From an uncultured bacterium (lineage in GTDB: Bacteria; UBA8481): 64,000 nt of DNA. Below, in pieces: positions 24,007 through 24,092 of the stretch. The first letter of the stretch is position 1; each line of letters begins with the position of its first letter. The notes under the pieces were generated by a model, which worked only from the letters and a program-made list of their open reading frames with translations, was not told the origin of the DNA and made no database searches. The DNA lies in contig CAZCME010000003.1 of the NCBI GenBank assembly GCA_964499705.1, positions 310,001-374,000 of the forward strand. Reading direction: 5' to 3'. The translations under genes were made by a program, and so were the position numbers.

Positions 24007-24092
24007 TGGCGCGGCCGGGATTCGAACCCGGACGGGTCATTCGACCCACCCAATTGGCAATCAGGCGCGTCTGCCGGTTCCGCCACCGCGCC
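24007..24092 (-). tRNA. Atypical tRNA: class II Leu-like body with Gly anticodon GCC
   Basis: GGCGCGG TG GCGG AACCGGCAG ACGC G CCTGA TTGCCAA TTGGG TGGGTCGAATGACCCGT CCGGG TTCGAAT CCCGG CCGCGCC A. 7-bp acceptor, full T arm, long variable arm; CCA not encoded. Confidence 0.85.

Follow-up and report, generated by a model that had tools for sequence, protein, structure and literature searches.

Introduction

In RNA-antitoxin systems, among them type I (hok/sok-like) systems, CreTA and SdsR/RyeA, a harmful RNA is neutralised by an adjacent small antisense RNA, of which a seed at the 5′ end contacts a loop, and the copies are often multiple and mobile. The present analysis concerns a tRNA gene of mixed identity and a small unit directly downstream of it, located in a stretch of 64,000 nucleotides from an uncultured groundwater bacterium (GTDB lineage UBA8481; assembly GCA_964499705.1, contig CAZCME010000003.1, positions 310,001 to 374,000 of the forward strand). 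This whole stretch is called the window below, and positions given without a contig are those of the window. The tRNA has a leucine-type body and a glycine anticodon, and the unit starts with a sequence complementary to its anticodon arm.

tRNAs in which body and anticodon disagree have been described before. The nev-tRNAs of nematodes are class II tRNAs that are charged with Leu and carry Gly CCC or Ile UAU anticodons (PMC3333845), and in bacteria the tRNAProX/ProRSx pair of Streptomyces has been reviewed together with other mismatched tRNAs (PMC11415595). The irregular tRNAs that Mukai et al. found in soil and sediment metagenomes, with GUC among the commonest anticodons, are often near transposons and toxin-antitoxin genes, and some are toxic or inactive in E. 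coli (PMC5389517).

Results

The window tRNA and its leucine-type body

ARAGORN called a single tRNA in the window (24006-24092, minus strand, anticodon gcc). The Rfam model RF00005 matches 24007-24092(-) end to end (49.8 bits, E 1.1e-7), which is the only gathering-level Rfam match in the 64 kb. The gene and its anticodon are:

24007..24092, minus strand: class II, Leu-type tRNA with anticodon GCC, 86 nt, A73, without encoded CCA
24056..24058, minus strand: anticodon GCC in the loop UUGCCAA, the same loop as in the genome's canonical tRNA-Gly(GCC)

The acceptor stem has 7 bp, with G1:C72 and G2:C71, followed by A73, and the D region GCGGAACCGGCAGACGC forms 3 bp plus G13.A22 in a Leu-style D arm. 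The anticodon stem CCUGA/UUGGG includes two G.U pairs, and the variable region of 17 nt consists of U, GGGUC-GAAU-GACCC and GU, giving a 5-bp stem with a GAAU loop. A15 and U48 are present and the T arm is canonical with 5 bp. An earlier note on this DNA had described an intact class II cloverleaf with a GCC anticodon, and ARAGORN, the Rfam tRNA model and the minus-strand reading agree with it in every detail (17-nt variable region, D region, A15:U48, A73, G2:C71, loop and the two G-U pairs). The positions that it gave for tRNA and anticodon are likewise correct; the minus strand had been left unstated. That sequencing reads might instead give an NAG or NAA anticodon, as considered there, is contradicted by contigs of three runs. 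A 514-nt contig of run X1 spans 23771-24284 with 0 differences to the window, and contigs of X2 and X3, from another study, differ from it at 24039, 24041 and 24052 only, exactly the three sites that distinguish the second GCC copy of the genome. The anticodon at 24056-24058 is the same in all these independent contigs and is therefore not an assembly error.

When the 86-nt tRNA was compared by BLAST with 41 genomes, 17 loci in other genomes were found beyond the odd copies of its own genome, and all 17 are tRNA-Leu by ARAGORN call. A Leu covariance model trained on 18 genes, namely these 17 and the genome's own tRNA-Leu(GAG), gave the following scores:

Window copy (GCC): 78.1 bits
Paralog on contig C28 (GCC): 82.3 bits
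GUC relative on contig C19: 69.9 bits
Four own Leu isoacceptors outside the training set: 72.6-97.8 bits
Own tRNA-Tyr: 45.7 bits
Canonical tRNA-Gly(GCC): 41.0 bits
Four own tRNA-Ser: 22-40 bits

The leucyl-tRNA synthetase (LeuRS) of E. coli needs A73, the A15-U48 pair, G18G19 and A20a, and neither the anticodon nor the long arm (PMC9976931); this whole identity set is present in the window tRNA. Of the bacterial Gly identity marks U73, G1:C72, C2:G71 and C35/C36 (PMC9976931) it has only G1:C72 and C35/C36, U73 and C2:G71 being absent. With its 17-nt variable arm, A73 and G2:C71 it does not have the class I body of a tRNA-Gly, and with GCC it does not have a Leu anticodon (NAG or YAA, with A35). 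The view of the earlier note that the body is of Leu type and not of Gly type is thus upheld by all 17 BLAST loci, by the Leu model and by the residues A73, A15, U48, G18G19 and A20a. A search for homologues, which it had proposed, returned these 17 tRNA-Leu loci and, in a metagenome scan reported below, 35 odd relatives.

The whole genome (4.67 Mb in 45 contigs, 96% complete) was surveyed for tRNAs with ARAGORN and Infernal. Canonical class I tRNA-Gly(GCC) (C7:172070-172144), tRNA-Gly(CCC) and tRNA-Gly(UCC) are present, as are all five Leu isoacceptors and a canonical tRNA-Asp(GUC) that is interrupted by the end of contig C23. The genome thus has an ordinary tRNA-Gly(GCC) and every Leu isoacceptor, both suggested as checks in the earlier note, and so there is no genome-wide recoding, as had been stated there. 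A single LeuRS gene was found (G000:C2:20734-23232), the TIGR00396 search giving one match over the cut-off and otherwise partial matches below it. Judged from its gene, the window tRNA is redundant to normal decoding, its isotype being Leu by body and Gly by anticodon.

Three odd class II tRNAs occur in the genome, the window copy and two others:

C28 40313-40398, minus strand: second GCC copy, 97% identical to the window copy
C19 22358-22443: Leu-type tRNA with the Asp anticodon GUC, body Leu-type, A73, loop CAGUCAA

The three differences of the C28 copy are a change of G30.U40 to G-C and two bases of the variable loop. The C19 tRNA is only 63% identical to the GCC copies and has A38, not C38, and A33 in place of U33. 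The phylum is represented by five genomes in the comparison set, and in the other four no Leu-type D arm followed by a non-A35 anticodon was found. In a crude count, GGC and GGU together make up ~58% of the Gly codons and roughly 5% of all codons, and GAC and GAU, which are all the Asp codons, roughly 7%.

A downstream unit complementary to the anticodon arm

About 90 nt 3′ of each odd tRNA, and on the same strand, lies a promoter-to-terminator unit of roughly 65 nt. Its parts in the window are:

23850..23919, minus strand: candidate antisense small RNA (sRNA) of ~65-70 nt, from the minimum free energy fold, with a predicted 5′ end
23896..23914, minus strand: antisense seed at the 5′ end of the candidate sRNA, complementary to tRNA nt 23-41
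23921..23949, minus strand: promoter-like site for the sRNA, TTGATT (23944-23949), 17 nt, GATGAT (23921-23926); weak in the window copy

The 19-nt seed is the reverse complement of tRNA nt 23-41 and covers the 3′ strand of the D stem, nt 26, the 5′ strand of the anticodon stem, the whole loop and nt 39-40. Between the window seed and the window tRNA there are 18 contiguous Watson-Crick pairs, or 20 when G.U is included, and in the C28 paralog 19. Across 52 ARAGORN tRNA calls each seed pairs best with its own neighbour (18-20 nt), the next best tRNA reaching 7-12 nt and, for the window seed, 7 nt. The 19-mer targets of the seeds have no other occurrence in the genome at up to 3 mismatches. Because whole-sequence RNAduplex energies are uninformative in this GC-rich genome, they were replaced by counts of seed runs and by the free-energy change on cofolding (ddG). 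The cofold ddG was -13 to -26 kcal/mol for cognate pairs, with -14.7 kcal/mol for the GCC tRNA and its own sRNA and -25.6 kcal/mol for the GUC tRNA and the second C19 unit, whereas non-cognate pairs gave 0 to -2.2 and 50 seed-shuffled controls -0.7 +/- 1.4 kcal/mol. In the cofold the cognate duplex is thus favoured even after the cost of unfolding the tRNA.

The predicted fold of the candidate sRNA starts with the single-stranded 5′ seed, continues with a short hairpin and ends in a terminator hairpin (23856-23875) with a U run (23850-23855). The sRNA unit is 95.7% identical in the C28 paralog, and the spacer before it has diverged with indels. The diverged stretch separates the tRNA from the -35 hexamer; conservation of the hexamers together with the ~70-nt unit is 96%, both hexamers being kept and the spacer and upstream sequence varying. 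By sigma70-like hexamer scoring the window site reaches 8/12. No Rfam family was matched by the sRNA units at gathering level, and the best weak matches were driven by the terminator. Weak BLAST matches of the sRNA at C28:44006, C9:39754 and C4:1513 were discarded as coding or unrelated sequence.

The same layout is found at the C19 GUC locus, there with two tandem units. The second of these forms 19 contiguous pairs with the GUC tRNA (12 Watson-Crick, one G.U, 6 Watson-Crick) in the same region. The first, at G000:C19:22505-22584, has a seed that would fit a loop CAGCCAA, and a tRNA with this loop is absent from the assembly; its cofold ddG is -13.1 with the GUC tRNA and -2.2 with the GCC tRNAs. 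Its sequence would fit either a diverging duplicate or the relic of a partner since lost.

Co-variation of tRNA and antisense unit in metagenomes

Metagenomes were scanned with a pattern consisting of the Leu-type D arm followed, at the correct distance, by G-Y-C-A-A. There were 51 matches, and 35 of them are Leu-like class II tRNAs of 83-89 nt, 20 with gcc and 15 with gtc. Dereplication at 93% tRNA identity, with the genome's own loci included, left 29 representatives. In 18 of these an antisense run of 13 or more Watson-Crick pairs lies within 300 nt downstream, and the run lengths are bimodal, 13-24 as against 6-8. In the non-cognate control, using the downstream regions of other loci, 31 of 812 comparisons reach 13 pairs, from related cores, and in the control with the upstream 300 nt 5 of 29 do so. 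Thirteen representatives, type a, pair from about nt 22-27 to nt 40-42 with the whole loop covered, and the remaining five with a partner, type b, pair with the anticodon arm plus the variable arm.

Pair types were counted in a fixed tRNA register over the 13 type-a representatives, the tRNA base being given before the sRNA base:

tRNA position 27: GC 7, CG 3, UA 1, UG 1, AU 1
tRNA position 28: AU 6, CG 6, GU 1
tRNA position 31: GC 6, CG 6, AU 1
tRNA position 33: UA 11, CG 1, AU 1
tRNA position 35: CG 10, UA 3

Compensatory changes are found at about ten positions of the tRNA-sRNA pairing, and even the odd A33 and C33 are matched by the sRNA base. The architecture, with a hairpin plus U run after the seed, is common to the 18 representatives, and in 16 of them a sigma70-like site of at least 8/12 has its -10 ending 4-8 nt before the seed (background 79/2000). 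Homologous units elsewhere show TTGACN-17-TANNNT or TTGACA-17-GATAAT at this distance from the seed, the latter in all five type-b units.

The tRNA itself is also conserved as a structure. Over 19 aligned family members 98.5% of the stem cells pair, and 20 of 25 pairs have changed on both sides; none of 500 shuffles reaches this co-variation, and slid controls pair at 36-46%. The family geometry of a 7-bp acceptor and a 5-bp T stem is supported by co-variation in both stems. A73 and U48, neither of them fixed by the search pattern, are invariant in 19/19 members; the D-loop residues are invariant too, but were imposed on the metagenome members by the pattern. C2:G71 is not kept across the family. 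Many members have promoter-like sites of their own just upstream of the tRNA, and some relatives without a partner have imperfect acceptor stems. As to carriage by phages, a viral collection gave 2 matches, one with an antisense unit and one without.

Upstream of the tRNA in several family loci, tRNA nt 7-25 are matched by 13-18 Watson-Crick pairs; in L157, L162 and L174 a stretch 60 nt upstream is complementary to the D-arm region, and at L159:3253-3269 and L200:2470-2486 the Leu model matches an inverted 17-nt copy of the D arm. By sequence, such a stretch could act as a second restraint in the 5′ leader. Locus L173 has two further tRNA-like genes upstream on the opposite strand, at 369-475 (-) and 499-574 (-), one of them an oversized Leu-type tRNA of ~107 nt with 68 bits in the Leu model. 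Genome contigs were also scanned with a looser pattern, and among the matches listed 76 of 80 were chance matches in coding DNA and four were Leu-like tRNAs (ACC, UGG, UGC and a fourth with an odd loop). None of these four is followed directly by an exact 12-mer antisense. Three of them come from metagenome-assembled genomes (MAGs), among the matches listed ACC (L061) from a Saccharibacteria MAG, UGG (L075) from a Terriglobia MAG and UGC (L095) from an Acidobacteriaceae MAG, and these class II tRNAs score 71.6-89.7 bits with the Leu model.

A proposed antisense restraint on a leucine-charged tRNA

An intact, conserved Leu-type tRNA is thus accompanied across lineages by a small unit with a 5′ end complementary to its anticodon arm. 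From these features we infer that the RNAs are expressed and that the tRNA is charged with Leu and used by ribosomes, and also the direction of control and the role in the cell. On sequence evidence we propose that the tRNA is a Leu-charged missense tRNA kept inactive by its own antisense sRNA in the manner of a toxin-antitoxin pair, a restrained mistranslator. LeuRS, presumably blind to the anticodon, would load the tRNA with leucine, and a free GCC tRNA would then place Leu at GGC/GGU, as its GUC relative would at GAC/GAU. The sRNA, with its own putative promoter ~90 nt downstream, would nucleate on the exposed anticodon loop and then invade the anticodon and D stems. In the resulting duplex the tRNA would be unfolded and unable to decode, and perhaps open to RNase III or decay, so that it would normally be silent. 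Should the sRNA supply drop through locus loss, transcription shut-off, stress or infection, the stable tRNA would be released and cause missense errors proteome-wide, which is the logic of an RNA-RNA toxin-antitoxin pair or of a conditional mistranslation switch.

This proposal is made tentatively, with a chance a little short of even, and its parts differ in strength. The tRNA-sRNA pairing is very probably a selected function. Whether the tRNA is Leu-charged and able to mistranslate is evenly poised, a toxin-antitoxin-like role is doubtful, and a stress-released adaptive role is unlikely. The feature expected of a toxin-antitoxin pair, an adjacent small RNA with extended and specific complementarity, is present in the candidate sRNA (18-20 pairs) and in 18 of the 29 representatives. 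Toxicity of the unopposed tRNA is predicted from Leu decoding of ~5-7% of codons, and an antitoxin less stable than its target from the general stability of tRNAs.

Several points weigh against this proposal. Transcription, 5′ ends and processing of both RNAs are deduced from DNA, a search for RNA runs that contain the region having found none, a stricter consensus promoter tool made no call at the window sRNA site, and neither promoter nor terminator was called between the tRNA and the helicase gene upstream of it, or between the tRNA and the sRNA; in the window copy the pairing could therefore act within one long transcript. The GGC-type seed of the first C19 unit pairs imperfectly with the GUC tRNA, with 2 mismatches and 2 wobbles, and 11 of the 29 family representatives have no antisense partner. 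Because the D arm was fixed in the metagenome pattern and GCC and GUC were the only anticodons admitted, ascertainment accounts for both the invariant D arm and the range of anticodons. Several GUC members carry A33 or C33, not U33, which should weaken decoding and could mean no decoding at all. Charging by LeuRS is predicted by analogy with the rules of E. coli for a phylum with only 5 genomes. The glycyl-tRNA synthetase (GlyRS) reads C35/C36 and the aspartyl-tRNA synthetase (AspRS) G34-U35-C36 (PMC9976931), and dual or correct charging by these enzymes is possible. Neither a protein partner nor a phenotype was found that ties the module to toxicity.

Genomic context, duplication and mobility

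The features around the tRNA in the window are:

24227..27361, minus strand: SNF2-family helicase gene, 1044 aa, Pfam SNF2_assoc, SNF2-rel_dom and Helicase_C, directly upstream of the tRNA
23839..27470, no strand assigned: duplicated 3.6-kb segment, matched by blastn to G000:C28:40153-43748 at 93.2% identity

The duplicated segment holds the helicase gene, the tRNA and ~170 nt downstream with sRNA and terminator, and the two helicases are 94% identical as proteins. In the 4 other genomes of the phylum there is no helicase homologue at E<=1e-30. A role of the helicase as a defence gene was rejected, as PADLOC and NCBIfam gave only generic SNF2-domain matches to the DpdE, ZorD and DrmD models, below the NCBIfam cut-offs; among the neighbours tested there was no other defence gene. 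Immediately upstream, the two helicase copies have different genes (window 27588-30243 (-), L021:11958-14232 (-)), the products of which, of 304, 593, 179 and 432 aa, have no Pfam, NCBIfam or PADLOC match. On the other side, a gene for a TrmJ/YjtD-like SpoU methyltransferase (window 23050-23811 (+), 158.9 bits against a cut-off of 167), of the tRNA C32/U32 2′-O-methylase family, converges on the sRNA terminator; it is outside the duplicated module, and its adjacency is therefore probably coincidental.

The GUC module is located in the recA-M24 peptidase intergenic region. In the relative G003, ~130 nt separate recA from this same convergent M24 peptidase gene and no tRNA lies there, and a tRNA was found at the recA locus in none of 4 relatives; on this sequence comparison the GUC module looks like an insertion of ~370 nt. 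IS1595-family transposases flank 2 of 10 family loci tested, and among 20 annotated neighbours of family loci there are two such transposases (L182, L178), the rest being unrelated genes. Carriage by a transposon within this genome was discarded, the only IS1595-family transposase (C25) having no tRNA nearby. A more far-reaching form of the proposal would be an RNA-only addiction or abortive-infection module, in which a Leu-charged toxin tRNA (GCC/GUC) and a short-lived, unfolding antisense antitoxin form a ~300-nt cassette that spreads between intergenic sites and on IS1595-type elements in many phyla; we regard this as possible, with the greater weight against it.

The same context bears on the alternative that mistranslation is conditional and beneficial, the tRNA being co-transcribed with DNA-damage or recombination genes and freed under stress to diversify the proteome. 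The GUC tRNA starts 100 nt after recA and the GCC tRNAs 134 nt after the SNF2 helicase genes, each on the same strand and with no terminator called between, so that by its position the helicase gene may co-transcribe the tRNA. Helicase, tRNA and sRNA were also duplicated jointly as the 3.6-kb unit, and regulated mistranslation by hybrid tRNAs has been discussed for tRNAProX and Candida (PMC11415595). The family as a whole does not follow this pattern, however: no shared protein neighbour was found when 505 flanking ORFs (open reading frames) were clustered, only near-identical loci being joined; the linkage to recA or SNF2 is unseen among the 20 annotated neighbours; and in many members the tRNA is closely preceded by promoter-like sites of its own. 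The substitution of Leu for Gly or Asp is, moreover, a harsh one, and we regard beneficial mistranslation as unlikely.

Elsewhere in this genome, a truncated tRNA-Met(CAT) comprising the 5′ two-thirds was found at G000:C7:118936-119015 (-) (Infernal 32.6 bits), ~900 nt from the intact gene at C7:118037-118110. It looks like a partial duplicate at the end of an element integrated in the tRNA gene.

Other explanations of the tRNA and its partner

A tRNA-shaped RNA that is not a decoder, serving as scaffold, decoy, sponge for the sRNA or non-ribosomal aminoacyl donor and forming a duplex with some other output, would fit the A33 or C33 of several GUC members and the imperfect acceptor stems of some partner-less relatives. 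There is also a precedent in the allo-tRNAs near toxin-antitoxin systems that failed to translate in E. coli (Mukai et al., PMC5389517). Yet all the features that charging and ribosome use require (7/5 stems, T loop, G18G19, A73) are kept under compensatory evolution, and without exception the anticodon is a sense triplet within a loop of 7 nt. The genome offers the sRNA seed no second target, and neither a tRNA-dependent transferase nor another conserved neighbour was found. Such a role is accordingly held to be quite improbable.

Correct charging by GlyRS or AspRS through the anticodon would make these tRNAs class II-bodied extra isoacceptors, with the sRNA tuning their supply. Gly identity includes C35 and C36, Asp identity is dominated by the anticodon (PMC9976931), and the loop UUGCCAA is shared with the canonical tRNA-Gly. 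However, A73 is present in 19/19 family members, whereas bacterial Gly needs U73 and Asp G73 (PMC9976931), the family does not keep C2:G71, and the GUC copy lacks C38. An ordinary isoacceptor would also have no need of a dedicated 20-nt antisense RNA, which leaves this alternative with a small probability.

The downstream unit could instead be a tiny leaderless ORF (M-I-G..., M-V-D...) with its third codon read by the adjoining tRNA, that is, a CreT-like ribosome sensor or sequestering RNA. A GTG or ATG two codons upstream of, and in frame with, GGC or GAC occurs in 4/4 units of the genome, and in the first C19 unit the predicted promoter would place the start of transcription near the ATG. 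The start codon is missing in five loci (L157, L172, L156, L174 and L179), ORF lengths are unconserved with most ORFs reading through the terminator, and the complementarity of 18-20 nt extends well past one codon and co-varies in the stems. For the missing starts and the complementarity beyond the codon, the mini-ORF was rejected as a general explanation and is highly improbable.

Finally, a functionless duplicate of tRNA-Leu in decay, its inverted repeat due to chance or recombination, with decay being a possibility that the earlier note had seen in the two G.U pairs of the anticodon stem, is so strongly disfavoured as to be nearly negligible: one of these pairs is G-C in the paralog, the three paralog differences are structure-neutral and the flanks 93% identical, the cloverleaf is kept through compensatory changes in all variable stems over the 19 family members, the repeat recurs with different sequence at independent loci (18/29 representatives), and positions outside the search pattern argue against an artefact of that pattern.

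Discussion

Taken alone, the tRNA is a natural hybrid-identity tRNA of bacteria, with a Leu body and a Gly or Asp anticodon. What is new relative to the papers and RNA families searched is that a tRNA gene is accompanied by an antisense-RNA gene of its own next to it, and that the tRNA-sRNA complementarity is held by compensatory changes across many unrelated metagenomic loci. The module changes the picture of an odd tRNA to that of an odd tRNA with a proposed restraint of its own; the partner and the two further odd tRNAs were absent from the earlier note. If the proposal of a restrained, Leu-charged tRNA is true, bacteria and mobile elements would carry ready code-breaking tRNAs under an RNA lock. 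The mature tRNA would then be a new kind of sRNA target, and the pair possibly a new type of toxin-antitoxin system. For synthetic biology it would offer a natural, tunable switch for missense incorporation.

In the literature searched, supplements excepted (including PMC11415595, PMC5389517 and PMC7609411), no description was found of a Leu-type bacterial tRNA with GCC or GUC, nor of an sRNA gene antisense to a neighbouring tRNA. Like the nev-tRNAs, the window tRNA combines a body with a long variable arm and the anticodon of a class I amino acid, Gly included, and an anticodon-blind synthetase is expected to load it with leucine. Unlike the nev-tRNAs, which are eukaryotic and nematode-specific, it is bacterial, its family has GCC or GUC anticodons, and it adjoins a dedicated candidate antisense sRNA gene, a feature outside the nev-tRNAs as described (PMC3333845). 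With the tRNAProX hybrids it shares a natural bacterial origin and identity elements at odds with the anticodon, and the A33 of the GUC copy resembles the rare A33 or G33 noted in mistranslating tRNAs (PMC11415595). It differs from tRNAProX in its Leu instead of Pro body, in a control element that is RNA and not protein, and in having no second specialised synthetase paralog, one LeuRS being found by the TIGR00396 search. The section of that review on other bacterial mistranslating tRNAs names no Leu-type example (PMC11415595).

The irregular tRNAs and allo-tRNAs are likewise anticodon-mismatched, GUC included, and found in metagenomes. In allo-tRNAs the 12-bp acceptor branch has an 8/4 or 9/3 acceptor/T geometry, with mostly Ser identity (PMC5389517), whereas the present family is 7/5 with Leu marks, and because of this geometry the window tRNA is not an allo-tRNA. 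The words 'antisense' and 'complementary' occur 0 times in the main text of that article (PMC5389517).

T-box leaders (RF00230) are comparable as RNAs that read a specific tRNA by a codon-like triplet on its anticodon, and no T-box match at Rfam gathering level was found in the window. The pairing described here differs from theirs in extending over ~20 nt, including strands of the anticodon stem and D stem, and in requiring the tRNA to unfold; there is neither pairing to the acceptor end nor a regulated gene downstream, and the unit ends in a terminator facing a convergent gene.

The closest likeness in layout is to the RNA-antitoxin pairs, with adjacent genes and a 5′ seed of the candidate sRNA contacting a loop. 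The differences are that the target is a tRNA and not an mRNA or sRNA, and that toxicity and the difference in stability are predicted. In the present module the tRNA and sRNA genes follow each other on one strand without overlap, and their complementarity must therefore be kept by selection.

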